NCBI GenBank assembly: GCA_964466545.1
Contig: CAYXNQ010000002.1
Location: 1 to 39,534, forward strand
Direction: 5' to 3'
Source of the DNA: an uncultured Lachnospiraceae bacterium
GTDB taxonomy: Bacteria > Bacillota > Clostridia > Oscillospirales > CAG-272
DNA: 39,534 nt
Shown here: in pieces, positions 2,025 through 29,770 of the stretch
How the letters are laid out: the number at the start of each line of letters is the position of its first letter
How positions within the stretch are numbered: the stretch's first letter is position 1
Made by a program: the position numbers and the translations under genes
The notes under the pieces: generated by a model
Told to the model about the DNA's origin: nothing
Databases searched by the model: none
The model's input: only the letters and a program-made list of their open reading frames with translations

Positions 2025-2744
2025 ATGAAAAAGAAGAATAAGATCATAATTGCTTTAATCGCGGTTTTTGTTGCGATCTCCGCCGCCGTTACCGTTTACG
2101 CAGTCGGATATGACAGCGAAAGTGATCCGATAGTTGCGCTCAGCTATATCACCGACGTATTCAAGCCTCAGCTCGAATCCATGATTCAAGGTGTAAAGAC
2201 CGAATTATCCGAGTTGATTTCCGGACTTCAGGCGTCGGTCTCCAAGCTCGATGCATCCGCAGATAAGGCCGAAACCGAAATCAAGGCCCTCGAATCGACT
2301 GTTGCCGAGCTTGAAAGCGGAAATGCATCGTTGAAAGACTCCCTTGAAAGTTCAAGCGCGGCGGACGAGCAGCTAAAGGATAAGCTCAACGCGCTTGAAT
2401 CCGCATTAAACGAAATTGAATCTAAGGTCGATAATGATGATCACGATGAAACTCCGATATATAATTTTGAAGTCGTATATCTGACAAAAGGTCAATCTTT
2501 AATGGCGACCAACGCGTGCGAGGTGATTCTTCGTTCCGGAGCTGCCGATGCTATCTCTCCCTTTGATGAGCAGGGATTGGCCGACTACACATCCGGAGCT
2601 GAGCTTCTGAACGGTGCTATGCTTACCGTAAATCATTTGAATTTGATATCTCGCGGTAACGACGGCAGAGGTTTGATCGTTACTTCCGATGATGCATATT
2701 TTATGGTGAGAGGAGGCTACACAATTGTCGAGCCGCAACAGTAA
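2025..2744 (+). CDS. Hypothetical single-pass membrane protein with a coiled-coil ectodomain
   Basis: ATG 2025 is preceded by AAAGGCAGG. The protein has a K-rich N-terminus and one hydrophobic helix (IIIALIAVFVAISAAVTVYAV). A long A/E/L/S/K-rich heptad-like segment follows, then a C-terminal domain of about 90 aa. I recognise no family. The track start at 1971 has no RBS. Confidence 0.7.
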   Translation: MKKKNKIIIALIAVFVAISAAVTVYAVGYDSESDPIVALSYITDVFKPQLESMIQGVKTELSELISGLQASVSKLDASADKAETEIKALESTVAELESGNASLKDSLESSSAADEQLKDKLNALESALNEIESKVDNDDHDETPIYNFEVVYLTKGQSLMATNACEVILRSGAADAISPFDEQGLADYTSGAELLNGAMLTVNHLNLISRGNDGRGLIVTSDDAYFMVRGGYTIVEPQQ

Positions 2745-4956
2745 TAATAAAGCGCGTCGTGTAGATCGGCGAACTACGCTGAAACGTGCGTTTTGCCTAT
2801 TTCTCGCGCTGTTGATGGTCGGCAGTGTAGCGTATACATTAATTATCCTTTTGTCTCAAGGTGTACTCGGCATTGAACGCGGGCGACCGCAGTCTACCAC
2901 CGGTACAACCACTACGTCGGAGCCTTTAGATGTGACTGATTCAACGGGCGAATCTGAAGCCTCAAGCGAAAGCGATACACAAAGCGAATCGTTGAGTGAA
3001 CCGGAAACAGAGCTTGAGACTGAAACTGAGACTGAAACTGAGACTGAAACTGAGACTGAAACTGAGACTGAAACTGAGACTGAAACTGAGAGCGAACCCG
3101 AATCGACGGAAGTAATTCCGCCGGATGAGCCGATCATACCTGAATATGAAGATATAAAGCTCCGTATTGGTCTTGTATATGGCTCCGGGGTACAGGTGTC
3201 ATACAAAACTACAACGGTAAACGGCTATACCATCGGTGCGCAGTCGCTTTCCGACGATAAAAAAAGCTTTACTGAGCTTTGGAATATCACCAATAATGAC
3301 GTTCTCGTTATGCTTGACGCAAACATTTGGAAATACAATGGCGAATACTTGCTTACAAACGGTGAATGGGGGCAGATCGGTTCGCATCACGTTCAGCTTG
3401 CGCAAGAATTTTCAAGTCTCGAAGAAGCTCAACTGTTTATTATCAAAAAATCGACGGAGCTTTCGTGGTACGCTCTTTCCGGATTTCCGGCATATGATAA
3501 CGGTCGCTTCTTTGTTCGCATCGGAAATTTTGTAAATGCGTCTGCTGCCGCCGGATATATCGATAAAATAGCTAATGCTTTGTCTTTAACCACTGATCAG
3601 ATGTATGTTGTGGGACCGTCCGATACTTCGGTTACACTTGTCAACCCGTATAATGATACGATCATTTTGGAGTTTGACGGCGGTGCTGATACGGTTCTTG
3701 GACTTGCCGCACGACCGAAGGATAATGAAAAGGCATATATAAAAACCCCCGCCGGTGAGCTTCATGACGGAGTTTTCGCGTTCAAGCATTATAACGTCTC
3801 GTCGTATAACGGCATTTCCGTTATTTCCGTAATCAATCTCGAAGATTATGTTGCCGGAGTTTTGCCTTACGAAATCAGCAATACCTGGCCGCTTGAAACG
3901 CAGAAGGCTTTTGCTATTGCCGTTCGGTCATTCGCTGTTTCTAAGATAAATCTCCATTATTACAGCTATTCGTTCGATCTTTGCAATACGGCACATTGTC
4001 AAGTTTATCGTGGGATCGCTCAAATTAACGATACTGTCCTCCAAGCCGTCGAGGAGACCAAAGGTCAGATACTTACCTACGGCAATATCATCTGTTCTAC
4101 TTGCTATTCTTCAAGCGTAGGCGGGATTACAGTCAATTCGCTCGATTGCTGGGGAAGCGTTTCACTGCCTTATCTTATAGCGAAAAGAACAGCGTGGGAG
4201 GATTACTACAATTACAACCACGGCTTCTGGATTGAGGAAGTTTCCGGCGCCGAGCTTCTGACATATCTTCGCGATACGCGTGGATACACAACTCTCGCCG
4301 GCTCATATATCGCCGACATTTCCGTAGATCAGTTTGCCACCGATTCAACATATGTAAAGACCTTAACCTTTACCGATAACCTCGGTTGCTCGGTGACACT
4401 GACGAACACAGATAAGATACGCGTTACGATGAGCGGATATCTTTACAGCTCTAATTTCGTTGTCGGCAAGGGAAGCGTTGCGTATACTTATGATGTCGTA
4501 AAAACGCGTAAAGAATACGAAGAATCACTAAAACAGCAAGAAAGCGGCGGCGCAGTATCATTCAAGTTGGCCGATTTTTCGATTATCACTGCTTTAGACC
4601 GATTCGTCACTTCGATCAACGGATACATAAACGTTATTACGGGAAGCGGTAACCAAAAGCTTGATCAGTCGAGCGCATATGTTATAACCAAGAATAACGC
4701 CGGACTTTATGTCGATGTATCCGGAGATATACAAAACGAGACAGAGACTCTGTATTCGTATGTGCGGCATAATACGGCTAATGCTTCGTCGCCCGATAAT
4801 TTTATATTTGTCGGCAAGGGGTGGGGGCACGGCGTCGGTATGAGTCAATACGGCGCAAAGGATCTTGCAGATCTCGGCTTCACATATGATAGTATACTGT
4901 ATTCGTATTTTGGCGACACAACAATAGTTGATTTCAGAACGATAATCGGCGATTGA
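2725..4956 (+). CDS. SpoIID/LytB-family protein (lytic transglycosylase / amidase enhancer type), extended 743-aa form
   Basis: TTG start at 2725 lies 8 nt after GAGAGGAGG and overlaps the upstream gene by 20 nt. The N-terminus has a TM helix, an acidic S/T/E linker and an SPOR-like stretch (FFVRIGNFVNASAAAGYIDKI). SpoIID hallmarks are present: LEDYVAGVLPYEIS, FDLCNTAHCQVYRG and GKGWGHGVGMSQYGA. Confidence 0.85.
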   Translation: MSSRNSNNKARRVDRRTTLKRAFCLFLALLMVGSVAYTLIILLSQGVLGIERGRPQSTTGTTTTSEPLDVTDSTGESEASSESDTQSESLSEPETELETETETETETETETETETETETETESEPESTEVIPPDEPIIPEYEDIKLRIGLVYGSGVQVSYKTTTVNGYTIGAQSLSDDKKSFTELWNITNNDVLVMLDANIWKYNGEYLLTNGEWGQIGSHHVQLAQEFSSLEEAQLFIIKKSTELSWYALSGFPAYDNGRFFVRIGNFVNASAAAGYIDKIANALSLTTDQMYVVGPSDTSVTLVNPYNDTIILEFDGGADTVLGLAARPKDNEKAYIKTPAGELHDGVFAFKHYNVSSYNGISVISVINLEDYVAGVLPYEISNTWPLETQKAFAIAVRSFAVSKINLHYYSYSFDLCNTAHCQVYRGIAQINDTVLQAVEETKGQILTYGNIICSTCYSSSVGGITVNSLDCWGSVSLPYLIAKRTAWEDYYNYNHGFWIEEVSGAELLTYLRDTRGYTTLAGSYIADISVDQFATDSTYVKTLTFTDNLGCSVTLTNTDKIRVTMSGYLYSSNFVVGKGSVAYTYDVVKTRKEYEESLKQQESGGAVSFKLADFSIITALDRFVTSINGYINVITGSGNQKLDQSSAYVITKNNAGLYVDVSGDIQNETETLYSYVRHNTANASSPDNFIFVGKGWGHGVGMSQYGAKDLADLGFTYDSILYSYFGDTTIVDFRTIIGD
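3016..3087 (+). repeat. Perfect tandem repeat, 6 x 12 bp (GAGACTGAAACT), encoding (ET)n
   Basis: Six identical 12-nt units were read directly at 3016-3087. A degenerate unit precedes them at 3004-3015. The repeat is in frame within the SpoIID-family linker. Confidence 0.95.
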
Positions 4957-5082: not shown

Positions 5083-5111
5083 TTGACAAGTCATACATTT
5101 TCTGATATACT
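5083..5111 (+). promoter_or_regulatory. SigmaA promoter of the pyr operon, TTGACA-17-TATACT
   Basis: -35 TTGACA at 5083-5088, a 17-nt spacer, and -10 TATACT at 5106-5111. An A/T-rich tract lies upstream. Confidence 0.7.
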
Positions 5112-5117
5112 TATCAA

Positions 5118-5246
5118 GTAATCTTTAAGCGGTACCGTGATGCCATCAAGATTCGTTTACAATATTATTGCGCCCAGTAGCAGTATGTTGCGGTGCTATG
5201 TTTGCTTCGGAATCTTGATATATCGAGATTCCGTTTTTGCTTTTAG
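5118..5246 (+). promoter_or_regulatory. pyr leader transcription attenuator (three mutually exclusive helices); candidate PyrR-type binding loop
   Basis: The anti-antiterminator is AATCTT 5120-5125 paired with AAGATT 5148-5153, with an inner stem GGTA/TGCC. The antiterminator is ATCAAGATTC 5145-5154 paired with GAATCTTGAT 5210-5219. The terminator is at 5208-5233 plus a T-run. Confidence 0.6.
5208..5244 (+). terminator. Intrinsic terminator hairpin inside the pyr leader
   Basis: An 11-bp stem (CGGAATCTTGA / TCGAGATTCCG) with loop TATA, followed by TTTTTGCTTTT. It lies 28 nt upstream of the pyrC start codon. Confidence 0.75.
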
Positions 5247-5271
5247 TCTTGCATGCGAGGAGGAAGATCAT

Positions 5272-6483
5272 ATGAGTTCCGTTTCAAAATTGACGGTTAA
5301 CGGCTATCAATTTGATCAAAGTAAACTTGACGCTCAAAGTGCCTCTATTTGCGATCAACTTTTGAAAAAATATAAGAATTGTACTGTTTTACCCGGCTTT
5401 GTTGACGTGCATGTGCATTTCAGACAGCCGGGTTATTTGTATAAGGAAACAATACTTACGGGCACGAAAGCGGCGGCGGCCGGCGGATATACGGCGGTTT
5501 GTACAATGCCGAATCTGCTTCCGCCCCCCGATTCGCCGAAAAATTTGCGGCTTCAGCTCGACGCTATCCAAAGCGACGCCGTTGTAAATGTATATCCATA
5601 CGGCACGATCACGCGCAATAGGGAAGGCAAGAAGTTGTCGGATTTCGCCGCTATTGCCGATAACGTTATTGCATACAGCGATGACGGCTCTGGAATTGCC
5701 GATGCCGCCCTTATGCGCGAAGCAATGACAGAGGCAAAAAAACTCGGGAAAATTATCGCTGCGCACTGTGAAGATCTCACTTTGCTCGGCGGCACACACG
5801 TTAACTCAGGTCCGCTTTCCGAACGCCTCGGTATCAACGGGATTTCGAGAGAATCTGAATGGCGGCAGATCGAACGCGATTTGAAGCTTGCGGATGAGAC
5901 GGGCGTAAAATACCACGTGTGTCACATCTCATGTCGCGAAAGTGTGCAATTGATTCGAGACGCTAAGAAAAGCGGCGTCGATGTGACGTGCGAAACCGCG
6001 CCGCATTATCTATTGCTTGATGAAAGCATGGCTGAAGATAGCGGAGCATTTAAGATGAATCCGCCGCTACGCTCGATTGAAGACAGACTTGCTTTGCTAG
6101 AAGGAATTGCCGACGGTACTGTGGATATGATAGCCACAGATCACGCGCCACATTCGGAAAAAGAAAAAACCGGCGGTCTGCTTGGATCGCTCATGGGAGT
6201 TGTCGGCCTTGAAACCGCGTTTCCAGTGTGCTTCACCAGATTGGTAAAAAGCGGGATAATACCGTTTTCGCGTTTGATAGAGCTGATGAGCATATCACCG
6301 GCAAAACGCTTTGAGATACCTGATAAAAATTCATTTACGATATTCGATCTTGAATCCGAATACATTATAGATTCAAATAAATTTGCGAGCATGGGACGCT
6401 CCACGCCATTTAACAACTGGAGAGTCAACGGAAAATGTGTAGCTACAGTAACGGAGGGAAATATAGTATATGAGCAGGAATAA
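5272..6483 (+). CDS. pyrC: Dihydroorotase
   Basis: ATG 5272 follows GAGGAGGAAG. Motifs present: PGFVDVHVHFRQPG (HxH), AAHCED, HVCHIS, ATDHAPH. The track start at 5137 lies inside the leader. Confidence 0.9.
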   Translation: MSSVSKLTVNGYQFDQSKLDAQSASICDQLLKKYKNCTVLPGFVDVHVHFRQPGYLYKETILTGTKAAAAGGYTAVCTMPNLLPPPDSPKNLRLQLDAIQSDAVVNVYPYGTITRNREGKKLSDFAAIADNVIAYSDDGSGIADAALMREAMTEAKKLGKIIAAHCEDLTLLGGTHVNSGPLSERLGINGISRESEWRQIERDLKLADETGVKYHVCHISCRESVQLIRDAKKSGVDVTCETAPHYLLLDESMAEDSGAFKMNPPLRSIEDRLALLEGIADGTVDMIATDHAPHSEKEKTGGLLGSLMGVVGLETAFPVCFTRLVKSGIIPFSRLIELMSISPAKRFEIPDKNSFTIFDLESEYIIDSNKFASMGRSTPFNNWRVNGKCVATVTEGNIVYEQE

Positions 6484-7552
6484 CTTTATAACAGATCATA
6501 ACAGAAAGATCGTCCTGGAGGATGGAAGTGAATTTTACGGCTACGGATTCGGCGCAAACGTGGATCGCGTATGCGAATTGGTTTTTAACACCTCGATGGT
6601 GGGATATCAAGAAATAATATCCGATCCCGCAAATTACTGCCAAGCTGTCGTGATGACGTATCCTCTTATAGGCAATTACGGCATCTCCGATGATGATTTT
6701 GAGCGATGTGTTCCCGTCGTCGGCGGTCTGATAGTACGGGATTACAATGATCATCCGAGCAATTTCAGTTACACGCGAACTCTTTCGGAAGTCATGGAAG
6801 ATAACGGAGTGCCCGGCATCTACGGCTTTGACACACGCGCGCTTACGCGAAAAATTCGCGATAACGGAAGTTGCAAGGTCTTGTTCACAAATGCAGATAC
6901 GCCGCTTGATGTTGCGAAAGATATTATCAATAATGCGGAAATTCCGCACGATTCGGTTTCTAAAGTTAGCACTCGCAAGCGCTGGTATTCGCGAACGCAC
7001 AATCCGCAGTTCAATATTATCGCGATTGATTGCGGAATCAACCATAATGCAATTAAAAGCATGAAGGATTGCGGTTGCAATGTAACGGTCGTTCCGTGGA
7101 ACACTACTTCGGATGTCATCGAAGCAATGCATCCGGATGCTATATATGTTTCGGGCGGCCCCGGAAATCCGGCAGATATACCCGAAACGGTCGAAACTGT
7201 ACAGCAGTTGATCGGAAAGTATCCTATGTGCGGTATTTCACTCGGACATCAACTGATATGTCTTGCGCTCGGAGCTACCACTTATAAAATGAACCTCGGA
7301 CACAGAGGCTCCAACCATCCCATCAGATGTACTTTGGATAGCAGCCTGATTTTCGCATCTCAAAATCACGGATACGCCGTCGATGCAGACAGCATTGGTA
7401 ACACCGCTTTGCAAATTACTCACATCGATGCACTTGATAATACGCTGGAAGGCGTTCAGTGCGAGGAAAAGCGTGTATTCAGCGTTCAGTTCCAGCCTGA
7501 TTATTCAGAGTTTTTCCGCAAGCTTGTTAATTTGATAAATGAAAGCAGGTAA
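6470..7552 (+). CDS. carA: Carbamoyl-phosphate synthase small subunit homologue with a substituted glutaminase triad
   Basis: Full-length CarA-like sequence ([28 protein letters not shown]). The nucleophile motif reads GISLGHQ instead of GICLGHQ, and the HPE motif reads QPD. The gene overlaps pyrC by 14 nt. Confidence 0.9.
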
Positions 7553-7557
7553 TTAAA

Positions 7558-10500
7558 ATGCCGAAAAGAACAGATATTAAAAAGGTATTGGTTATTGGCT
7601 CGGGTCCGATCGTTATCGGTCAGGCGGCTGAATTTGATTATGCCGACACGCAGGCATGTCTCGCGCTAAAAGAAGAAGGGTACGAAGTTGTACTTGTAAA
7701 CTCCAATCCGGCAACTATCATGACGGATACCACAATTGCCGATAAAGTATATATGGAGCCGCTCACGCTGGAATATGTGGCTAAAATAATCAGATTTGAA
7801 CGTCCGGACGCTGTAATCCCGAATTTAGGCGGACAGACGGGTCTGAATCTTGCAATGCAGCTTTCCAAAAAAGGTATTCTTGACGAGTGTCAAGTGGAGC
7901 TTCTCGGTACATCGTGCGAGAGTATTGAGCTTGCGGAGGACAGAGAAAAATTCAAAGAGCTTTGCGAAAGCATCGGCGAGCCTGTTCTCCCTTCCGTTAT
8001 TACATATTCAGTTGAAGAAGCGATAGAAGCGGCAAAAGCTATTACATATCCTGTTGTTTTGAGGCCCGCCTTTACGCTCGGCGGTACAGGCGGTGGATTC
8101 GCGGATAACGAGGAAGAGCTTGTTGAACTTATGAAAAACGGACTTGCTCTTTCGCCCGTTCATCAGGTGCTTGTGGAAAAAAGTATACGCGGCTATAAAG
8201 AGATCGAATACGAGGTCATGAGAGACGCCAACGACACTGCAATTGCCGTCTGCAATATGGAAAACATCGACCCAGTCGGCATACATACCGGAGACTCGAT
8301 CGTTGTAGCACCTACGCAAACGCTTACCAGCAAAGAATGCAGTATGCTTCGCGAGAGCGCCATCAAGGTTATTCGCGCACTGAAGGTCGAAGGCGGATGC
8401 AATGTTCAGTTTGCTCTCGATCCTCATTCGCTTAAATATTATCTGATCGAAGTAAATCCCAGAGTTTCCCGTTCGTCTGCGCTTGCTTCAAAAGCGAGCG
8501 GATATCCGATAGCGCGCGTAACGGCGAAGGTATCCGTTGGTATGCACTTGGACGAGATAAAGCTTGCCAATACTCCGGCAAGCTTTGAGCCGGCGCTTGA
8601 TTACATCGTCACAAAAATGGCGCGATTCCCGTTTGATAAATTCAGATCAGCTTCAAACACACTCAGTACGCAGATGAAGGCGACCGGCGAGGTAATGAGC
8701 ATCGGAAGAACGCTCGAAGAAAGCTTCCTCAAAGCCGTAAGATCTCTCGAAATCGGTGTATCTCATATATACATGAAAAAATTCGACAATTATGAGACCG
8801 ATCAGCTTTTGAAATACATTGTCGATGGTAGAGACGACCGTTTGTATGCGCTTGCCGAGCTTATAAGACGAAATGTTGAACTCGATATTCTTTGCAACAT
8901 CACAAAGATAGATCAGCTCTTCCTGCAAAAGATTAAGAATATCGTTGACTTTGAAACAACGCTAAAAGATAATATCGGAAATGTCGAATATCTTTACAGA
9001 GCAAAGGTTATAGGATTTTCCGATAAATACATCGCAAAGCTCTGGAATATGACAGATGCCGATGTATTCTATATGCGAAAGAATAATTCGATATTCCCGT
9101 CGTATAAAATGATCGATACTTGCGCTGCCGAATTTGCAAGCTATGTTCCGTATCTTTACTCAACTTATGAGGACGAAAATGAATCGGTTGTCAGTGATAA
9201 GAAAAAGATACTTGTGCTCGGTTCCGGTCCGATCAGAATAGGTCAGGGAGTTGAGTTTGATTATTCGACTGTACATGCCGTAAAAACTATCAAAGAAAGC
9301 GGATATGAAGCTATCATCATAAATAACAATCCGGAGACTGTGTCTACAGATTATACCGTAAGCGATAAGCTTTACTTTGAGCCGCTCACCGTTGAAGATG
9401 TAATGAATGTCGTTGAGCTTGAAAAGCCATACGGTGTTATTGCATCACTCGGCGGTCAGACAGCTATAAATCTTGCCGAGCCTCTCGGTAAGCTCGGCGT
9501 TAATATAATCGGCGCCGACGCCGAAGCGATCGAACGTGCGGAAAATCGTGACGCGTTTGAGAAGTTGCTTGTCCAGCTTGATATTCCTCAACCTAAGGGC
9601 CATGCGGTCACTAATATTGAAGATGGTGTAAAAGCGGCGGAGGAGATCGGATATCCTGTACTTGTTCGTCCCAGCTATGTACTTGGCGGACGCGCTATGC
9701 AGATCGTAACAAACGAGAGCCAGCTTCGTCAGTATCTCCGTAGCGCCGTTGAAGTAAACGAAGATCAGCCGGTTCTTGTCGATAAGTATATTTTCGGTAA
9801 AGAGCTTGAAGTCGACGCAGTCTGCGACGGAACGGATGTATTTGTTCCCGGAATAATGGAGCATGTCGAAAGAACCGGTATCCATTCGGGTGACAGTATT
9901 AGCGTATATCCCACATTCAGCGTATCTAATAAAGCTAAGCAAACGATACTTGATTATACAAAACGTCTCGGTCTCGGCATTAATATAGTCGGTCTCTATA
10001 ATATCCAGTTTATAGTTGACAAAAACGAAAACGTGTATATAATCGAAGTAAATCCGCGTTCATCGCGTACCGTGCCGTTTTTGTCGAAGGCTACGGGATA
10101 TCCGATTGCCGATATTGCTACGCTCGCAATTCTCGGTAAATCTCTGAAAGAGCAGGGCTATACCAGCATTTACCCACCGGAAAGACAGCGTTGGTATGTA
10201 AAAGCACCCGCGTTCTCGTTCTCTAAACTTAGGGGATTGGACGCATATCTCTCGCCTGAAATGAAATCAACCGGCGAGGCTATTGGCTACGACAATACTT
10301 TGACTCGCGCTTTATATAAGGCTCTGCGTTCTTCCGGAATGAACGTAATGAATTACGGAACGTTACTTGTTACTATAGCAGACTGTGATAAAGAGGAAGC
10401 GCTTCCGCTGATACGCAGATTTTACCGTCTCGGATTTAACATTGAGGCAACCTCCGGCACAGCAAAGTATCTAAAGGAACATGGAATCAGAACGCGAGTA

Positions 10501-10737
10501 CGCGCTAAGATAAGCGAGGGCAGTGATGAGATCCTCAGCTCGATACGTCAGGGACACGTCACCTATGTCATAAATACGCGCGATATCGGTTCATCCGATC
10601 AGATAAGCGACGGGTTCGAAATAAGACAGTGCGCGGTCGAGAATAATGTTACCATGTTCACCGCTCTTGATACAGTTAGAGTTTTACTCGATGTTCTTGA
10701 GGAAACAACGCTCTGTATATCGACGATCGATTCATGA
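7558..10737 (+). CDS. carB: Carbamoyl-phosphate synthase large subunit
   Basis: A 1059-aa protein with duplicated ATP-grasp halves ([17 protein letters not shown] and [17 protein letters not shown]; [17 protein letters not shown] and [17 protein letters not shown]). The C-terminus has an MGS-like allosteric domain. Confidence 0.95.
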
Positions 10738-11474
10738 CTATGGCAAAGAATGTAATACTTACCTTGATTGAAAATTACGAGATCGCAAGCAATGTGTATA
10801 AAATGAAGCTTACGGGCGATGTATCTGCAATAGCTGCTCCTGGGCAATTTGTTAATATTAAGCTCAGCGGGCTATATCTCAGAAGACCGATCTCGGTGTG
10901 TGATCTAAACGGCGATGTTTTGACGCTTATCTATAAAGTCGTCGGAAAGGGAACTCGCGCAATGGCGACGCTTTCCGACAGTGAAAACCTTGACGTGCTT
11001 GTCGGGCTTGGCAACGGATATGATATTTCGAAATCCGGTCCTACGCCGCTGCTTATCGGCGGCGGTGTAGGCGTGCCACCTCTTTATTATCTCGCCCGAA
11101 CGCTTATGGAAAACGGAAGGACTCCAAGCGTCGTTCTCGGATTTAACTCAATAAACGATGTAATTTTATATGAAGAATTCAAAGCATTAGGACTTGATAC
11201 TGCAGTAGCGACGGCTGACGGTACTTTCGGTCAGCGCGGATTTGTGACCGATGTCTTGCCCAATTCCGATTATTCTTACGTATTTACCTGCGGTCCTGAG
11301 CCTATGCTTAAAGCCGTATATAATAAAACAACCGTTGGCGGACAGTACAGCTTTGAAGAACGAATGGGGTGCGGATTCGGTGCTTGCATGGGTTGCACCT
11401 GCGAAACAAAATACGGTTCTAAACGCATATGTAAAGACGGCCCTGTGCTTGAAAAAGAGGAGATCATATGGTAA
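10734..11474 (+). CDS. pyrK: Dihydroorotate dehydrogenase B electron-transfer (FAD/2Fe-2S) subunit
   Basis: ATGA overlap with the carB stop. RRPISV flavin motif. C-terminal cluster [11 protein letters not shown]...ICKDGPV. Confidence 0.9.
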
Positions 11475-12379
11475 ATACTGCTGTTGAGCTTTCCGGAATC
11501 AAGCTTGAAAATCCTATAATTCCCGCAAGCGGTACATTCGGATACGGCGAAGAATTTGCCGAATTTTACGATCTGAATATTCTCGGCTCGATATCGATCA
11601 AAGGTACGACGGTCAATCCAAGATTTGGAAATCCGACGCCGCGTATAGCGGAATGTACCGAAGGAATGATAAATTCCGTCGGCTTGCAAAATCCCGGCGT
11701 CGATCACGTGTTGAAAGAAGAACTTCCGCGTCTTGCCAAGCTTTTTCATAAGCCGGTAGTTGCCAATGTTAGCGGATTTTCGATCGACGAATATATAACT
11801 ATGTCCGAAAAAATTTCAGATGCCGATAACGTCGGAATAATTGAAGTCAATATCAGTTGCCCCAACGTTCACAGCGGCGGTATGAGCTTTGGTGTTTCGC
11901 CTGAATCGGCGGCTGAAGTGACAAAAGCTGTGAAAGCTCATACCAAGAAGCCTGTATATATGAAGCTTTCGCCGAATGTTACCGATATTGCTACTATAGC
12001 GCGCGCGTGCGAAAAGGCCGGAGCAGACGGCATAAGCTTAATTAATACACTCCTCGGTATGCGAATAGATCTGAAAAAACGCAAGCCGATAATCGCGAAT
12101 AAAGTCGGAGGTTTTTCCGGACGTGCAATTTTACCGGTAGCGCTCGGAATGGTTTATCGAGTTTATGATGCTGTCGACATACCTATTATCGGAGGCGGCG
12201 GAGTCTCAAGCGCCGAAGACGCCATTGAAATGATGCTGGCAGGAGCTTCAGCTGTTGAGGTCGGCGCCGAAAATCTTATAAATCCTTTTGCTTGCCGCGA
12301 TATTATCGCAAGTTTGCCCGAAAAAATGGCGGAGCTTTCTATAACAGACCTATCGTCTATTGTCGGTGCCGCGCACTGA
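11468..12379 (+). CDS. pyrD: Dihydroorotate dehydrogenase, class 1B catalytic subunit
   Basis: GAGGAG RBS. Motifs IPASGTFGYG and VNISCPNV (catalytic Cys). 7-nt overlap with pyrK. Confidence 0.92.
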   Translation: MVNTAVELSGIKLENPIIPASGTFGYGEEFAEFYDLNILGSISIKGTTVNPRFGNPTPRIAECTEGMINSVGLQNPGVDHVLKEELPRLAKLFHKPVVANVSGFSIDEYITMSEKISDADNVGIIEVNISCPNVHSGGMSFGVSPESAAEVTKAVKAHTKKPVYMKLSPNVTDIATIARACEKAGADGISLINTLLGMRIDLKKRKPIIANKVGGFSGRAILPVALGMVYRVYDAVDIPIIGGGGVSSAEDAIEMMLAGASAVEVGAENLINPFACRDIIASLPEKMAELSITDLSSIVGAAH

Positions 12380-12412: not shown

Positions 12413-13108
12413 ATGGATCGCGATGTTGTGATTGCATGTGATTTCCCTACAAAAAACGAATTATTTGAATTCCTGTCAAAGCTGGGCAATGAGAAGCCGT
12501 ATTTGAAGATCGGTATGGAAATGTACTATGCCGAAGGCGCCCAGATCATTTATAAGCTCAAAAGCTTGGGCTTTAAGATATTTCTTGATCTTAAGCTTCA
12601 TGACATTCCGAATACGGTAAAAAGCGCGATGAAAGTTTTAGCATCTCTTGATATTGATATGTGCAATGTCCATGCGGCTGGCGGAATTAAAATGATGAGC
12701 GCTGCGGCAGAAGGCTTGACAAAACCGGACGGTTCTCGCGCTAAGTTGATCGCGGTCACGCAGTTGACTTCAACATCACAGGAAATGCTGAGCGATGAGC
12801 TTATGATAAATATGCCCGTCCTTGATTGCGTATTGAAGTATGCCGAAAATGTGAAGAATGCCGGACTTGACGGAGTTGTTTGTTCTCCGCTCGAAGCGGG
12901 AAGTGTAAAAGAACGTTGCGGAAGTGATTTTATTGCGCTTACGCCTGGCATAAGATTTGCCGGTGGAGATAACGACGATCAGTCAAGAGTAACTACGCCC
13001 GCAAAGGCTAAAGAGCTTGGCTCCGACTATATCGTTGTCGGCAGACCTATCACCAGAGCGGCAGATCCGCTTGGGGCATACTTAAAATGTGTTAAAGATT
13101 TCATATAA
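12413..13108 (+). CDS. pyrF: Orotidine 5'-phosphate decarboxylase
   Basis: ATG 12413 lies 7 nt after AAAGGCGGA; the GTG at 12395 is less likely. Motifs DLKLHDIPNT and IVVGRPI. Confidence 0.9.
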   Translation: MDRDVVIACDFPTKNELFEFLSKLGNEKPYLKIGMEMYYAEGAQIIYKLKSLGFKIFLDLKLHDIPNTVKSAMKVLASLDIDMCNVHAAGGIKMMSAAAEGLTKPDGSRAKLIAVTQLTSTSQEMLSDELMINMPVLDCVLKYAENVKNAGLDGVVCSPLEAGSVKERCGSDFIALTPGIRFAGGDNDDQSRVTTPAKAKELGSDYIVVGRPITRAADPLGAYLKCVKDFI

Positions 13109-13123
13109 CGGAGGTCATATCAG

Positions 13124-13759
13124 ATGATAAAACATGAAGTAGCAAAGCATTTGCTTTCGATCGGTGCCGTTTTCTTGCGCCCCGATGAACCTTTCACTTG
13201 GGCAAGCGGCATAAAGAGTCCTATTTATTGCGACAACAGATTGATACTCACAGCTCCCGAAGCTCGTACAACGGTTGAAGCTGCAATTGCGGATACTGTA
13301 AAACGGGAATATCCGGAATGTGAGAAGCTTATGGGAACAAGCACCGCCGGTATAGCTCACGCGGCTATTGCGGCGCATATGCTCGGCCTGCCTATGGGAT
13401 ATGTACGCGGTAGCGCGAAGGATCATGGAAGACAGAATAGAGTTGAGGGAAAGCTAAACGCAGGCGATAAGGTTGTTGTTATCGAAGATTTGATCTCGAC
13501 CGGCGGAAGCGTTATAGACGTTGTCGAAGCACTGCGCGAAGCCGGTGCGGAAGTTCTTGGCATTGTAAGTATATTTACATACGGTATGCAGCGCGGTCTC
13601 GATAGATTGTCTGCAGCAAATGTCAAAAACGTGAGCGTGACAGATTTTGATACTGTTATCGAAGTTGCAATTGAAAATGGGTATATTTCGCCGGCTGATA
13701 AAGAACGCTTAATCAGCTTCAGAAATAATCCGTCCGACGAAAGCTGGATCAACAAATAA
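13124..13759 (+). CDS. pyrE: Orotate phosphoribosyltransferase
   Basis: ACGGAGG RBS. PRPP-binding loop [13 protein letters not shown]. Confidence 0.9.
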
Positions 13760-13770
13760 TCGGTGATGTA

Positions 13771-14685
13771 ATGAGACATTTAATAGATATAATGGATCTC
13801 ACAACAGATGAGATCGACGGCTTGATCACGACTGCCTTTGATATCATTAATTCGCCCGAAAAATATCGCGACATATGCAAATACAAAAAATTGGCTACGC
13901 TATTTTTTGAACCTTCAACTCGAACCCGCCTCAGCTTTGAAGCCGCTATGCTGGAGCTTGGCGGCAGTGTTATCGGATTTTCCGAAGCATCAAGCAGCTC
14001 GGCTTCAAAAGGAGAGACGGTGACCGACACTGTTAGAGTAGTGGGAAATTATGTCGATATCATAGCAATGAGGCATCCTAAGGAAGGCGCACCGTTTGCC
14101 GCGTCTATGAAATCACCCGTTCCGATAATTAACGCGGGCGACGGCGGTCATAATCATCCTACTCAAACTCTTGCGGATCTGCTGACGATCAAAGCTGAAA
14201 AGGGAAGATTACACGACCTCACCATTGGACTTTGCGGTGATCTGAAATTCGGACGTACAGTCCATTCGCTGATATCCGCTATGTCGCGTTACAGTGGAAT
14301 CAAGTTTATTCTAATTTCACCGGATGAACTGAAGGTGCCGGATTACGTAATCGAAAAGCTCAAGGCCGCAAATATTCAATATGTGGAAACGCGCGATCTT
14401 CTCGAATATATGCCTGAGCTTGATGTTTTGTATATGACGCGGGTGCAGCAAGAACGTTTTTTCAACGAAGCAGACTATATACGGCTTAAAGACAGCTACG
14501 TTTTGACCGAAGAAAAACTGCATACAGCCAAAGCGTCGCTTTCGATACTTCATCCGTTGCCGCGCGTTAACGAGATATCTGTTGAGATCGACGATGATCC
14601 TCGCGCTTGTTATTTTAAGCAAACACGTTACGGAAAATATATCCGCGAAGCACTTATTCTTAAGCTTCTCGGCATACAGGAGTAA
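13771..14685 (+). CDS. pyrB: Aspartate carbamoyltransferase catalytic subunit
   Basis: Motifs [20 protein letters not shown] and HPLPRV. Confidence 0.93.
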
Positions 14686-24854: not shown

Positions 24855-25091
24855 ATGGAAAAGAATAGCGAATCATACAATTTTGAGACAGCGATCGCGC
24901 GTCTTGAAGAAATAGTTAAGTTGCTTGAAAGCGGAAACGCCGCGCTTGATGAATCGCTTGCGTTGTTTGAGGAGGGCGTTTCATTAGTCAAACTTTGTAA
25001 TTCAAAGCTTGATTGCGCGGAGCAGAAGATCAAGCTTGTCGGAATTTTACCGGACGGGAATTTCAAAGACGAGGATATGCCAAAGCTATGA
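24855..25091 (+). CDS. xseB: Exodeoxyribonuclease VII small subunit
   Basis: A 78-aa protein. FETAIARLEEIVKLLESGNAALDESLALFEEGVSLVKLCNSKL is the canonical XseB helix-hairpin. Confidence 0.9.
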   Translation: MEKNSESYNFETAIARLEEIVKLLESGNAALDESLALFEEGVSLVKLCNSKLDCAEQKIKLVGILPDGNFKDEDMPKL

Positions 25092-25966
25092 TCGATATCA
25101 ATGCATTGCTTAAAGAAAATACTGTAATCGTTGAAAATGCATTGAAGGAGACGTTAGACTGCCAAAACGTAGGGACGTCTTTACTGTCCGATGCAATGCG
25201 ATATGCAGTACTCGGTGGCGGAAAGCGTATCCGTGCATTTTTATGCAGACAATTCGCGAGGCTGTTCGGCGGTAACGTTGCCGCCGCCATTCCGTATGCC
25301 GTATCGCTTGAGTTGCTTCACGCATACTCGCTCGTGCATGACGATATGCCGTGTATGGACAACGACGATATGAGACGCGGTAAACCCTCGACGCATGCAA
25401 AGTTCGGTGAAGGTCAGGCTTTGCTCGCCGGAGATACACTGTTAACGCTGGCTTTCCAAGTCGCGCTTGAAAATAAATACGTTTCCGATGCATCGGCACG
25501 TGCTGCCGCAGGCGAGCTTGCGCGTTCGGCAGGGGTGCTCGGAATGTGCGGCGGACAGCAGATAGACTTGACCTGTTCTGCCGCGAATTATGACGAGCTG
25601 AAGAATCTTCATCGCATGAAAACGGGAGCTTTAATTTCTGCTTCATGCGTTATGGGGGCTTACAGCGCAACGCTTCCTACCGACGAAGATTTGGCAAAAA
25701 TCCGCGATTACGCTTACTCTATCGGGCTTGCGTTTCAGATCGTTGACGATATTCTTGATGTCACCTCGACACCGGAGATTCTCGGAAAGCCCATCGGAAG
25801 CGATTCTGAAGAAGATAAGATCACAGTGCTTTCGTTTTTATCGGTCGATGAAGCAAGGGATGAAGCCGAGCGACTTACCGAACACGCAAAAAATGTCATC
25901 CGCGATTTTGATTCAGCGGAAATATTGACCGCCTTTGCCGATTATCTTTTATTTCGCGACAGATGA
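25088..25966 (+). CDS. ispA: (2E,6E)-farnesyl/geranyl diphosphate synthase
   Basis: ATGA overlap with xseB. First Asp-rich motif LVHDDMPCMDNDDMRRGKPS and second motif FQIVDDILD. Confidence 0.9.
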   Translation: MIDINALLKENTVIVENALKETLDCQNVGTSLLSDAMRYAVLGGGKRIRAFLCRQFARLFGGNVAAAIPYAVSLELLHAYSLVHDDMPCMDNDDMRRGKPSTHAKFGEGQALLAGDTLLTLAFQVALENKYVSDASARAAAGELARSAGVLGMCGGQQIDLTCSAANYDELKNLHRMKTGALISASCVMGAYSATLPTDEDLAKIRDYAYSIGLAFQIVDDILDVTSTPEILGKPIGSDSEEDKITVLSFLSVDEARDEAERLTEHAKNVIRDFDSAEILTAFADYLLFRDR

Positions 25967-25969
25967 TTT

Positions 25970-26698
25970 ATGAGAATAGACGTATTAATGGCACAAAAAA
26001 AGCTTGTCGCTAGCCGATCAAAAGCTCAAGAATTTATAAGATCCGGATACATATATGTAAACGGTGCGCGTATTGACAGACCGTCATTTGATTTAGACGA
26101 ATGCGAAGCCGATAATATTCAAATCATCGGGGCTTACGATTTTGTAAGCCGCGGCGCCTTAAAACTTAAGCAAGCTATTGACACTTTCGGTATAGAACCG
26201 CGCGGTAAAATATGCTGCGATATCGGGGCTTCGACCGGCGGCTTTACGGATTGTCTTTTGAAACACGGAGCCATTAAAATAATCGCCGTTGATTCAGGCG
26301 AAGGTCAGCTTGCCGAATCGCTATTGCACGATCCGAGAGTACATTCGATCGAGAAGTTCAACGCAAGATATATATCACGCGAAGCAATCGGAGCCACTTG
26401 CGATATTGTAACCTGCGATGTGTCGTTTATTTCGCAAACTCTTATAATTCCGGCTGCCGCGACGCTCCTCGAACCAGGCGGAGAATACATATCGCTGATC
26501 AAGCCGCAATTTGAACTCACCCAAAATGAGATCGGAAGCGGCGGGGTAGTACGTTCGCCAAAAGCTCGCGACGCAGCAATTAAACGAGTAACGGATTGCT
26601 TTACAGCTCATTCATTTTCGGTTATCGGAATTACAGATTCACCTATCTGCGGCGGCGATGGAAATCACGAATATTTAATATATTCTAAGAAGCTCTGA
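25970..26698 (+). CDS. tlyA: TlyA-family rRNA 2'-O-ribose methyltransferase (S4 domain plus FtsJ-like)
   Basis: N-terminal S4-like segment (RIDVLM...SRSKAQEFIRSGYIYVNG). SAM loop DIGASTGGFTDCLL. Confidence 0.85.
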   Translation: MRIDVLMAQKKLVASRSKAQEFIRSGYIYVNGARIDRPSFDLDECEADNIQIIGAYDFVSRGALKLKQAIDTFGIEPRGKICCDIGASTGGFTDCLLKHGAIKIIAVDSGEGQLAESLLHDPRVHSIEKFNARYISREAIGATCDIVTCDVSFISQTLIIPAAATLLEPGGEYISLIKPQFELTQNEIGSGGVVRSPKARDAAIKRVTDCFTAHSFSVIGITDSPICGGDGNHEYLIYSKKL

Positions 26699-26721
26699 TT
26701 TTTTCGAGCTAAAGGAGCATT

Positions 26722-27588
26722 ATGACACGAATCAACCGTTTGCTTTTGATACCGAGCAGCGTAAAAAAGATACAGCCCGAAAAAATTCAATATCTATGCG
26801 AGCATATCCGCTCGCAGTCATGCGATTTATTCACTACGAGTGAATTTGAATACCTGACGTCACTATCGCCATACGTCTGTATCGCCGACGGTGAGGCGGA
26901 CATAAAAAAATGCGATATGGTGTTAGTGCTTGGCGGAGACGGTTCTTTTTTGAATGCCGCCGGTATAGCTTCAAAATATCTCTTGCCGATTGCGGGAATC
27001 AACTTCGGAAGATTGGGGTATTTAGCGGAGCTTGAATATAACGATAGGGAATTGCTTTCTAAGCTTCTCGCGGGTGAATTTACAGTTGAGAACCGAATTA
27101 TGCTTGACGCTATCGTAAATTCAAATAACGACGGCGAACAAATTGTATTACCGCCTGCTCTAAATGATATAGTTATAGCTAACGGCCCTATTTCGCGGCT
27201 TCTTTCGTTTGATCTTTATTGCAACGGCGAGCTTGCCGTCACCAATAGAGGGGATGGTATCGTAATCGCAACTCCAACCGGCTCTACGGCATATTCAATG
27301 TCAGCCGGCGGACCGGTGCTTGACCCTTGCCTTGACTGCATACTCGCAACAATGATCTGCCCTCACTCCCTGACATCAAGACCCATCGTTTTTGGTGGAG
27401 ATTCAAAAATAGAACTGCGAAATCTCACTGCCCGCGATACAGAGCCGTACATCATGATCGACGGTCGCGATATAACAAAATTAAACGATTCTGATGTAGT
27501 TACTATAACGCGTAGCACGTCATTCGTAAAATTCGCGCGTGTGCGCACAGGCGGTTTTTTAGCTACATTACGTGAAAAAATGATTTGA
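26722..27588 (+). CDS. nadK: NAD kinase
   Basis: AAAGGAG RBS. Motifs GGDGSFL, NDIVI and ATPTGSTAYSMSAGGP. Confidence 0.9.
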   Translation: MTRINRLLLIPSSVKKIQPEKIQYLCEHIRSQSCDLFTTSEFEYLTSLSPYVCIADGEADIKKCDMVLVLGGDGSFLNAAGIASKYLLPIAGINFGRLGYLAELEYNDRELLSKLLAGEFTVENRIMLDAIVNSNNDGEQIVLPPALNDIVIANGPISRLLSFDLYCNGELAVTNRGDGIVIATPTGSTAYSMSAGGPVLDPCLDCILATMICPHSLTSRPIVFGGDSKIELRNLTARDTEPYIMIDGRDITKLNDSDVVTITRSTSFVKFARVRTGGFLATLREKMI

Positions 27589-27608
27589 ACTTAGGAGAAA
27601 ATCTAACG

Positions 27609-28079
27609 ATGAAAAATTCGCGCCAAGAATTGATCCTGCAAATTATAGAAAAATACTGCATCACAACACAGGAAGAGCTTCTCAAAAAGCTTACCGATGC
27701 CGGACATTCAGTTACGCAAGCTACCGTTTCGCGCGATATTCGCCAAATGAAGCTTGTAAAGATAATGAACGATGCGGGCGAATACAGATATGTTTCTCCG
27801 GAGTCCTCAAGCGAGTATTCAGAAAGGGAGGATATCAGTATCTATTCGTCGGCGCTGCTTGAATCGGTAAAAAAGGTCGATTGCGCAATGAATATTGTCG
27901 TTATTAAAACCTATCCGGGAATGGCGTCACCTGTTGCCGCCGCTGTCGATTCCATCAAAGATGTTGACATACTCGGTTGCGTTGCCGGCGACGATACGGT
28001 AATCATAATTGCTCGAAGTGAAACTGTCGCTATTGACATATCGCGTAAACTTTCAAATCTCAACACGACGGGAAAATAG
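27609..28079 (+). CDS. argR: Arginine repressor
   Basis: ATG 27609 follows AGGAGA. The winged-helix N-terminus is RQELILQIIEKYCITTQEELLKKL...VTQATVSRDI. The C-terminal oligomerisation domain contains GCVAGDDTV. Confidence 0.88.
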   Translation: MKNSRQELILQIIEKYCITTQEELLKKLTDAGHSVTQATVSRDIRQMKLVKIMNDAGEYRYVSPESSSEYSEREDISIYSSALLESVKKVDCAMNIVVIKTYPGMASPVAAAVDSIKDVDILGCVAGDDTVIIIARSETVAIDISRKLSNLNTTGK

Positions 28080-28081
28080 AA

Positions 28082-29770
28082 ATGCTTACAAATCTGTATA
28101 TTGAAAATATTGCGGTTGCAAAGCGCCTGTCAATAGATTTTACAAACGGATTTTCAGTATTGACCGGCGAAACAGGTGCTGGAAAATCTATCGTTGCCGA
28201 CTGCTTGGGTTTATTGATCGGAAACAAAGCAAGTCGCGATATGATACGTTCCGGTGAAGATCATGCGCTCGTCGCCGGGATATTTTCGATTTCTCCCGAA
28301 AAATCGTCTCTGCTTTCCGAGCTTGGGTTCACTCCTGACGAAAACGGCGAACTTTTGATAACAAGAACGATCACATCTGACGGAAGAAGCTCTGTAAAAT
28401 GCAATAAACGTGCTGTTACACTCTCTGCTTTGCGAGAAGCCGGAGGCTATCTGATCAATATTCACGGTCAGGGAGAGAGCATATTTTTAACGGATACCGT
28501 TTTTCACGCTGAAATTTTGGATGAATATTCAAAGCTTTCAAAAGAACTTCAAGATTACAAAAAAGCTTACGGCGAATATATTCGTCGGCGCGACGAGCTT
28601 TCGCGTTTCACCCATGACATAGGCGAGCGCGAAATGATGATAGATATATTGAAATATCAACTGAAAGAAATAGATTCGGCTAAGCTTTCGTCGCCGGACG
28701 AAGAAGATAAACTCAGATTAATGAGATCGAAACTAAAGAGCTATGAGCAGATCAGCAAATTGATAGCAATTATCAAAAAAAGCTTGGTGGATTCGGAAAA
28801 GGGAAGCTCGGCAAGTCAACAACTGCTTCGTGCCTCAAAAGCGGTGGATGCCCTCTCGGCAGTCCTGCCGGAAAGCGCAGATATTTCATCACGGCTTGAT
28901 GCTATACGGTATGAGCTGGAAGATATATCCGACAAATGTTCTGCCGTAATCGACGATTCAATAGCGGATCCGGAACGACAGCTCGATATTATCGAAACAC
29001 GTCTTGCGCTTATAGAAAAGCTTGAGCGCAAATACGGAACAGATATTGCTGAAATTTTAGCAAAAAGAAAATCACTGCATGATAAGCTTGAAAATCTGCA
29101 AAGTGCGGATAATACAAGAGATGAGCTTGAAAAACAGCTCAATATTTGCTATAATAATGCTTGTTCGATAGCGATGTTGCTATCAGAAAAGCGAAAAAGC
29201 TCTGCCGATGAAATAACCAAAAAGGTGAGCGGTGTTCTTTCATATCTTGATATGCCTAAGGTTAGATTTATCGTCTCGGTTACCAAGAATATTGAAAAAG
29301 ACGGAAGTCCGTTGCTCTCATCGGGGGGATACGACAGAATTGAATTTCTAATTTCAACAAATCCCGGCGACGAGCCTAAGCCGCTTGCAAAAATCGCTTC
29401 CGGCGGCGAATTATCGCGAGTGTTGCTTGCTCTGAAAAGTGAACTTTCTAACGAAAACGGCGCTGACACGATAGTGTTTGACGAAATAGATTCGGGTGTT
29501 TCCGGCGCGACTTCAGAAAAAATCGGTCGCAAGCTGAAAGAGATATCCGAAAAATCGCAGGTCATATGCGTTACACATTCTCCGCAGATCGCCGCCATGG
29601 CGGATACACATTATTTTGTTTCCAAGGTCGAATGTAACGGTAGAAACGAAAGTTCGGTCAGAATATTATCTGATGAAGAGCGAATCGAGGAGATCGCAAG
29701 AATAATAGGCGGTGTAACTGTTACTGACGCGCAACGCGCTGCGGCAAAAGAGCTTATCAACAATCATTAA
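28082..29770 (+). CDS. recN: DNA repair protein RecN
   Basis: Walker A GETGAGKS, a long coiled coil, the signature ASGGELSRVLLALK, and Walker B IVFDEIDSG. Confidence 0.93.
   Translation: MLTNLYIENIAVAKRLSIDFTNGFSVLTGETGAGKSIVADCLGLLIGNKASRDMIRSGEDHALVAGIFSISPEKSSLLSELGFTPDENGELLITRTITSDGRSSVKCNKRAVTLSALREAGGYLINIHGQGESIFLTDTVFHAEILDEYSKLSKELQDYKKAYGEYIRRRDELSRFTHDIGEREMMIDILKYQLKEIDSAKLSSPDEEDKLRLMRSKLKSYEQISKLIAIIKKSLVDSEKGSSASQQLLRASKAVDALSAVLPESADISSRLDAIRYELEDISDKCSAVIDDSIADPERQLDIIETRLALIEKLERKYGTDIAEILAKRKSLHDKLENLQSADNTRDELEKQLNICYNNACSIAMLLSEKRKSSADEITKKVSGVLSYLDMPKVRFIVSVTKNIEKDGSPLLSSGGYDRIEFLISTNPGDEPKPLAKIASGGELSRVLLALKSELSNENGADTIVFDEIDSGVSGATSEKIGRKLKEISEKSQVICVTHSPQIAAMADTHYFVSKVECNGRNESSVRILSDEERIEEIARIIGGVTVTDAQRAAAKELINNH

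Follow-up and report, generated by a model that had tools for sequence, protein, structure and literature searches.

In the carbamoyl-phosphate synthase (CPS) of Escherichia coli, the small-subunit replacements C269S, C269G and H353N, as well as mutations that block or perforate the ammonia tunnel, abolish glutamine-dependent activity and leave NH3-dependent activity in place; the same enzyme has a very high Km for NH4+. In nature, all CPS types except vertebrate CPS1 use glutamine, and CPS variants with a blocked or perforated tunnel are normally active with ammonia (PMC4655335). CPS1 has Ser294 in place of the catalytic Cys and a Gln in place of Gly293 that blocks the old tunnel, with the tunnel gate conserved; it takes up environmental ammonia, for which an alternative external path has been proposed (PMC4655335). 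Here we describe a carA gene, encoding a CPS small subunit, in a 39,534-nucleotide stretch of DNA from an uncultured Lachnospiraceae bacterium (assembly GCA_964466545.1, contig CAYXNQ010000002.1, positions 1 to 39,534 of the forward strand), which we refer to as the window. The gene lies at 6470-7552 on the + strand within a pyrimidine (pyr) operon, and was identified from its open reading frame (ORF), profile hidden Markov models (HMMs) and alignment. Its glutaminase site is degenerate. We propose, with a probability of roughly 0.72, that this pyr-operon CarA is a dead pseudo-glutaminase, that the CPS to which it belongs is most likely NH3-dependent, and that CarA is kept as a structural partner.

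An original prediction made from the sequence of the window had described the protein as a full-length CarA homologue that has lost its whole catalytic triad, and the family models bear out the first part of this description. The 360-residue product, which is interrupted by no frameshift or stop, scores 370.4 bits against TIGR01368 (cut-off 307.35) and 346 bits against NF009475 (cut-off 221), both of which are whole-protein HMMs. It has the two-domain architecture of the family, with PF00988 at residues 14-136 and PF00117, the class I glutamine amidotransferase (GATase) domain, at residues 185-345, and its best PDB sequence matches in a phmmer search were E. coli CarA structures (1m6v_B and 1c30_B, E = 1e-66). 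A 229-residue antisense ORF (6443-7132, - strand) runs inside carA, and we take it to be a mechanical ORF.

The triad itself was said to have changed from Cys to Ser, from His to Gln and from Glu to Asp. The first two replacements were recovered with both phmmer and MAFFT: Ser257 (codon TCA, 7238-7240, + strand) occupies the nucleophile column of E. coli Cys269, so that GISLGHQ stands opposite GICLGHQ, and Gln342 (codon CAG, 7493-7495, + strand) occupies the column of His353. The third held for the loss of Glu, and its replacement by Asp turned out to depend on the alignment. Directly after Q-P, the window CarA has a seven-residue (in-frame 21-nt) deletion that takes out the catalytic Glu or its neighbours together with the G359/P360/H361 segment. 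Asp344 (codon GAT, 7499-7501, + strand) stands opposite Glu355 in the phmmer alignment and stays in the Glu column in one of three MAFFT alignments; in the other two the Glu itself is deleted (ESAPGPQ), and Asp344 becomes the Asp of '...PQDS'. No alignment gives a Glu in this column. What is left of the 11-residue loop E355-P365 is the four-residue remnant D-Y-S-E (7499-7510, + strand). Ser, Gln and either Asp or the deletion thus fall in the catalytic columns, and the elbow Cys, the His of the H-P-E motif and the Glu that mark an active class I triad GATase are all missing. Across the 173 close relatives whose triad is intact, these three columns are 100% C, H and E, so the loss of the triad is not a matter of chance. 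We also considered Cys254 (codon TGC at 7229-7231, read directly) as the true elbow nucleophile, a placement that would have overturned the prediction. This candidate was rejected: the alignment partner of Cys254 is E. coli F266, which precedes the first elbow Gly, and P-I-C-G-I-C-L-G-H-Q is found in intact relatives too, which makes a Cys at this site an ordinary variant.

The damage extends beyond the triad. An alignment of E. coli CarA with 200 close homologues was sorted according to triad state, which gave 173 intact and 27 degenerate proteins. In the intact set, S47, K202, N240 and G359 are 100% invariant, as are the triad columns, and Q273, T308 and P360 (each 99%) and G293 (98%) are nearly so. 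The window CarA has Ala54 (codon GCA, 6629-6631, + strand) in the column of Ser47, Asn191 (AAC, 7040-7042, + strand) in that of Lys202 and Ser281 (TCC, 7310-7312, + strand) in that of Gly293, the tunnel residue that is also replaced in human CPS1; Gly229 stands at N240 and Ala296 at T308. It is these very positions that are relaxed in the degenerate set: G293 is replaced in 23 of the 27 proteins, the nucleophile column holds Gly in 17, and the Q273 column holds Glu, Leu or Gly in 14, the nearest relative among them (GHE in P0002). By contrast, G241, G243, Q310, N311 and H312 are invariant in intact and degenerate proteins alike. The pocket has therefore decayed as a whole, with its scaffold kept. 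Given the combined losses in triad and pocket, hydrolysis of glutamine by the window CarA is very unlikely; the triad, S47 and K202, which a glutamine-hydrolysing CPS (EC 6.3.5.5) requires, are all missing. Two other oddities came up among the homologues. P0109 keeps the C/H/E triad and reads GHP at the Q273 position, and P0005, a 437-residue CarA from a Eubacterium sp. metagenome-assembled genome (MAG) that is otherwise intact, contains an internal tandem duplication of ~75 residues that begins directly after GICLGHQ and doubles the GHRGGNHP...SQNH segment.

These columns also bear on two ways in which the domain might still handle glutamine. The first is that a residual or alternative glutaminase chemistry persists, with Ser257 or Cys254 as the nucleophile and other residues as its partners. 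In other hydrolase folds Ser does serve as a nucleophile, and there is a Cys three residues upstream. However, His and Glu are both lost, Cys254 lies outside the G-x-C-x-G elbow and is found in intact relatives as well, Gly predominates at the nucleophile column of the degenerate homologues, and the E. coli C269S protein has no glutaminase activity; we consider this possibility very improbable. The second is that CarA binds glutamine without hydrolysing it, and so senses nitrogen and adjusts an ammonia-dependent CarB allosterically. In E. coli the C269S protein can bind glutamine (PDB 1C30), and the ATPase of the large subunit is stimulated when glutamine is bound. The window CarA also keeps L258, Q261, N299, G301 and Y302 (E. 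coli L270, Q273, N311, G313 and F314), several of which belong to the set S47, Q273, N311, G313 and F314 that we take, from the work of Thoden, Holden and Raushel, to be glutamine-binding in E. coli CarA. Against a sensor stand the Ala and Asn that the window CarA has in place of S47 and K202, the replacement of Q273 in about half of the degenerate relatives and the drift of the whole pocket. An allosteric role is the less likely one because positions that are invariant in intact proteins, and that bind glutamine in E. coli CarA, have also been lost, and we regard the sensor as improbable.

A gene from a MAG contig with such an unusual active site could also be an artefact of sequencing or assembly, or a pseudogene that has begun to decay. 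The identical Ser, Gln and deletion recur in a syntenic orthologue, which is 79% identical and was assembled independently from two SRA runs (L001 and L002). Because the independent assemblies share all three, sequencing error, which would have undone the prediction, is ruled out. Decay fares no better: three codons have changed, 21 nt have been deleted in frame and the active site has taken at least five more substitutions, yet the ORF is open. By the method of Nei and Gojobori (NG86), applied to the window and the L001 orthologue, the ratio of nonsynonymous to synonymous substitution (dN/dS) is 0.055 for the whole of carA and ~0.07 for its GATase domain (dN 0.168), beside 0.076 for pyrC, 0.069 for pyrD and 0.019 for carB, all of these ratios being approximate as dS is saturated at ~2. 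With dN far below dS, carA is under purifying selection, and we give the artefact or dying gene a negligible chance. The junctions of the gene are as originally read, with the start of carA overlapping the end of pyrC by 14 nt (pyrC stop at 6481-6483) and 5 nt separating its end from the carB ATG at 7558. A Shine-Dalgarno sequence graded as strong, GGAGGG, lies ahead of carA at 6453-6458. To judge from this layout, carA is translationally coupled within a complete pyr operon. Together with the dN/dS of 0.055, this coupling supports the earlier view of a gene that is still selected and looks expressed.

Selection on the two domains of CarA is not equal. Between the window and L001, CarB is 95% identical. 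Pairs of intact loci at ~95% CarB identity show 91% identity in both CarA domains, whereas in the window-L001 pair the N-terminal domain is 85% and the GATase domain 73% identical. The GATase domain of the window CarA is thus evolving ~3-fold faster than live GATase domains. Constraint is accordingly relaxed, not lost, a pattern that fits a domain without catalysis but with a structural role. In an AlphaFold2 model the GATase domain reached a predicted local distance difference test (pLDDT) score of ~90; the N-terminal domain was modelled poorly, from an alignment of only 14 sequences. The original prediction had offered either a structural or an allosteric role for the retained subunit, and it is the structural one that gains from a fast-evolving, still constrained GATase domain.

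The original prediction treated this CarA as a single odd gene. A survey of its relatives gives a different picture, in which the degenerate state is recurrent and widespread. Besides the 27 degenerate proteins among the 200 close homologues, one or more triad residues are missing from 14 of the 120 nearest database proteins, and degenerate triads occur in 12 of the best 80 species-representative genomes, all of which are MAGs of gut or rumen Clostridia (labelled Oscillospiraceae, Acutalibacteraceae, Ruminococcaceae, Congzhengia and others). When a degenerate-CarA profile was run exhaustively with HMMER against 1.84 billion 50%-identity cluster representatives, ~37 full-length degenerate-triad proteins were found among the best 150 representatives. 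Most of these have Gly in place of Cys, and in most of them S47, Q273 or G293 is missing as well. One cluster, found on >100 contigs, is Candidatus Pelethenecus faecipullorum (Mollicutes incertae sedis, chicken gut), in which carA sits in a pyrB-pyrC-carA-carB-pyrK-pyrD-pyrF-pyrE operon; three more divergent clusters show that pyr operon too. The named sources of degenerate CarA are therefore gut and rumen Clostridia and one gut Mollicutes-type genus, and a search for a cultured carrier with the CarA of Congzhengia sp. gave uncultured sources only. In public annotation, P0333 (an NCBI MAG, Clostridia bacterium, with G/Q/G in the triad columns) is named 'glutamine-hydrolyzing', and P0316 (HIT49621.1 / UniRef100_A0A9D1KIL1, with G/D/D) is likewise named a glutamine-hydrolyzing carbamoyl-phosphate synthase. 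This naming looks like systematic over-annotation by equivalog HMMs that are blind to catalytic residues.

We then considered whether the degenerate CarAs descend from one ancestral loss or from several. Some proteins keep the Cys and have lost the His (P0003, P0033, L012 and L077), and others keep the His and have lost the Cys, either to Gly (P0015, P0086 and P0094) or to Ser (P0035/L008). These opposite partial losses imply at least three independent inactivations of the triad. In neighbour-joining (NJ) trees of CarA and of CarB, the degenerate lineages fall in at least four to six clades, and they were monophyletic in 0 of 50 bootstraps. A single ancestral loss is thus unsupported by these trees. 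Because their deep branches are very short, we claim no more than logic demands, a minimum of three inactivations. A second candidate, a specialised paralogue family confined to pyr operons, was also rejected. Degenerate and intact CarAs are both found in pyr operons and in stand-alone carAB pairs (e.g. L083), and since they share both gene contexts they are orthologues.

This orthology matters for the possibility that a second, intact CarA encoded elsewhere in the genome supplies CarB with glutamine-derived ammonia (or that a second complete CarAB carries out the synthesis), and that the operon copy is a regulatory or scaffolding paralogue. Some Firmicutes, such as Bacillus and Lactobacillus, carry two CPS sets, and the window encodes ArgR, so arginine metabolism is regulated in this organism. 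On the other side, the degenerate CarAs are orthologous to intact ones, share their contexts and occur in stand-alone carAB pairs as well; no genome appears twice among the best 80 loci; and carA, though dead as a glutaminase, is coupled to carB in translation and held by purifying selection. The degenerate state also reaches a Mollicutes-type lineage, in which a spare CPS is unlikely because such genomes are small. Overall, we think a second CarA unlikely.

The carB gene (7558-10737, + strand) encodes a full-length large subunit of 1059 residues that scores 1490 bits against NF003671 and 1045 bits against E. coli 1bxr_A. It retains the ammonia-tunnel gate, with residues as given in PMC8674909 and PMC4655335: Cys232 (8251-8253), Ala251 (8308-8310) and Ala313 (8494-8496; E. 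coli A314), all on the + strand. The gate is not strictly invariant in the group, since A251 is Cys in the CarBs of L084 (a degenerate partner that also has R265K), L033 and L079 (both intact partners).

Around the gate, CarB covaries with the state of CarA. We compared 57 partners of intact CarAs with 11 partners of degenerate CarAs, using window numbering. Six positions invariant in all 57 intact partners are changed in most or all of the degenerate ones: S253 to T, C or A and S322 to T in 11 of 11 each, N258 to S or A and F533 to L in 10 each, Y261 to C or N in eight, and T230 to A in seven. The window CarB has Thr253, Ser258 and Cys261 (8314-8340, + strand), where the partners of intact CarAs invariably have S, N and Y, and Thr322 (8521-8523, + strand; E. 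coli A323). When the pattern was used as a prediction for three added degenerate lineages (L083, L084 and L085), T322 was present and N258 lost in all three, and S253 was kept as Ser in two. Within the wider group of the window, S322T is therefore found in 14 of 14 degenerate partners, as against 0 of 57 intact ones. In human CPS1, the equivalents of CarB 253, 258, 261, 322 and 533 are A, N, F, A and L. That the covariation has adaptive meaning is our hypothesis.

Taken together, these observations suggest the following course of events and mechanism. Selection for glutaminase activity has repeatedly lapsed, both among gut Clostridia and in a Mollicutes-type lineage of the gut, after which the pocket decayed in various ways. 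The nitrogen donor would most likely be free NH3 from the ammonia-rich gut or rumen habitat, which would pass the retained gate C232/A251/A313 on its way to the carboxyphosphate site of CarB. CarA would be kept both for the structural partner that CarB needs and for the part that it forms of the ammonia path. We hypothesise that the shortened 355-365 loop serves as the entry portal for external NH3. In E. coli CarA the 355-364 loop, which includes G359, is presumably the one that is shifted in the G359F mutant (PDB 1M6V), from which ammonia escapes to solvent. The enzyme would then be a heterodimeric bacterial counterpart of vertebrate CPS I. We are evenly balanced on a broader version of this proposal, namely that gut and rumen anaerobes have repeatedly converted a glutamine-dependent CarAB into an obligately ammonia-dependent enzyme, with CarA and the nearby parts of CarB remodelled for external NH3. 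The remodelled sites would be the 355-365 loop, G293 (to Ser or Cys) and CarB positions 230, 253, 258, 261 and 322.

Several points weigh against an ammonia-dependent CPS with a structural CarA. Both ammonia as the physiological donor and the role of CarA as structural element or conduit are inferred from sequence, and an enzyme that depended on NH3 physiologically would need a better affinity for NH4+ than that of E. coli CPS. The sequence at hand is one 39.5-kb MAG contig, which leaves a small chance of a second intact carA elsewhere in the genome. The habitat argument is weak: all named relatives come from gut or rumen metagenomes, and relatives with an intact CarA share these habitats. Saturation of dS makes the dN/dS values approximate. 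As for CarB, four much more distant degenerate lineages keep S322, so that S322T is rejected as a universal correlate of the degenerate state and is instead specific to the wider group of the window, where it may mark common descent that NJ trees of such poor resolution do not reveal.

The remainder of the operon is conventional. Its order is pyrC-carA-carB-pyrK-pyrD-pyrF-pyrE-pyrB, all on the + strand, so that carAB is set among the genes of a complete pyr operon. No extra glutaminase gene was found in this operon or in the rest of the 39.5-kb window. Upstream of carA is pyrC (5272-6483; dihydroorotase, 382 bits against TIGR00857). Downstream of carB follow pyrK (10734-11474; dihydroorotate dehydrogenase electron-transfer subunit), pyrD (11468-12379; dihydroorotate dehydrogenase), pyrF (12413-13108; orotidine 5'-monophosphate (OMP) decarboxylase), pyrE (13124-13759; orotate phosphoribosyltransferase) and pyrB (13771-14685; aspartate carbamoyltransferase). 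The PyrB protein, the consumer of carbamoyl phosphate, scores 337 bits against TIGR00670 and falls under the cut-offs of the ornithine carbamoyltransferase (OTCase) models. The mechanical pyrC ORF begins at a GTG at 5137 (448 residues), upstream of the leader hairpin described below; the ATG start at 5272 (403 residues) is backed by the L001 orthologue and by a GAGGAGG Shine-Dalgarno sequence.

The leader of the operon (5083-5271) has what we would call attenuator-like geometry. A promoter-like site, TTGACA-17-TG-TATACT (5083-5111, + strand), matches the consensus at 11 of 12 positions, a consensus match being its only basis, and a terminator-like hairpin of 11 bp with a T-tract (5208-5243, + strand) lies 30 nt before pyrC. 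The 5' arm of this hairpin can pair with an upstream repeat instead (AUCAAGAUUC / GAAUCUUGAU). Rfam gave no match above gathering thresholds anywhere in the window, and no PyrR site was found in the pyr leader. Elsewhere in the window, a 743-residue SpoIID-domain protein (2725-4956) contains a long acidic low-complexity repeat, (Thr-Glu)n or 'ETETETE...', near residues 57-126; on the opposite strand its mirror reads as (Ser-Val)n in a spurious ORF at 2856-3206. Positions 25013-29770 hold a conserved Firmicute cluster, ispA - tlyA/rrmJ-like methyltransferase - nadK - argR - recN. Its argR is encoded 14 kb from the pyr operon, and no arginine biosynthesis genes lie within the window.

A search of the full-text literature, with most subscription journals outside its reach, returned no description of a bacterial CarA without its triad. 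The CarA family and the analogy to CPS I are already known; the recurrent heterodimeric bacterial version in pyr operons appears undescribed. If our interpretation is correct, bacteria have arrived at CPS I-like chemistry on their own and more than once, and the degenerate lineages offer natural replicates for studying how an amidotransferase complex is rewired to external ammonia. The retained dead subunit would be a clear case, from bacteria, of a pseudoenzyme preserved by its structural role. In a sizeable set of gut and rumen Clostridia and Mollicutes-type bacteria, the synthesis of pyrimidines and possibly of arginine would be tied directly to luminal ammonia, a link that would matter for models of nitrogen flux in gut and rumen. 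There would also be a consequence for annotation: an unrecognised class of CPS would be labelled 'glutamine-hydrolyzing' in very many MAGs, and for proteins of the kind of P0333 and P0316 that label (EC 6.3.5.5) would be wrong and the error inherited by metabolic reconstructions.

How, then, does this locus compare with the known systems? Another prokaryotic route to carbamoyl phosphate from ammonia has been described in the Thermococcales (Pyrococcus furiosus), which use a carbamate-kinase-type, ammonia-dependent synthesis (Legrain et al. 1995, cited in PMC6245113; also PMC13260591). It resembles what we propose here in having ammonia as the donor and dispensing with glutamine. However, the P. 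furiosus enzyme is a homologue of carbamate kinase and involves no CarA or CarB, whereas the window encodes a bona fide CarAB.

The closest relative in composition is the glutamine-dependent CarAB of E. coli (PDB 1JDB and 1BXR), which is likewise encoded by two genes of identical families and has in common with the window the N-terminal domain of CarA and the gate C232/A251/A314. The window differs from it in lacking the Cys-His-Glu triad, S47, K202, N240, G293 and T308, in a 355-365 loop cut from 11 residues to four, and in a CarB altered at 230, 253, 258, 261 and 323 (E. coli numbering). The engineered E. coli CarA mutants C269S, C269G and H353N (PDB 1C30 and 1A9X) mirror the natural variants, in which Cys is likewise replaced by Ser or Gly and the His is replaced, and the window deletion removes the loop that holds G359, the site of the tunnel mutant G359F (1M6V). 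Those mutants are single changes in an enzyme adapted to glutamine, with poor affinity for NH4+. In the window, by contrast, the whole pocket has drifted under natural selection and is accompanied by changes in CarB.

Vertebrate CPS I (EC 6.3.4.16; human CPS1, PDB 5DOT/5DOU) is the closest parallel in kind, as it too retains an inactive glutaminase-like domain. The two differ in several respects. CPS I is one fused polypeptide of 1500 residues, requires N-acetylglutamate and serves the urea cycle, whereas the window has separate carA and carB genes and its CPS sits in a pyrimidine operon. The triad His and Glu, still present in CPS1, are both lost in the window, and in CPS1 Gly293 has become a bulky Gln that blocks the tunnel, as opposed to the small Ser of the window. 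CPS1 also lacks the hydroxyl of Tyr261, having Phe at this position, where the window CarB has Cys. The original prediction had drawn the parallel from the Cys-to-Ser change alone, and the comparison carries it further: in CPS I and in the window the catalytic Cys has become Ser, Gly293 has been replaced, and the tunnel gate has been conserved (PMC4655335).

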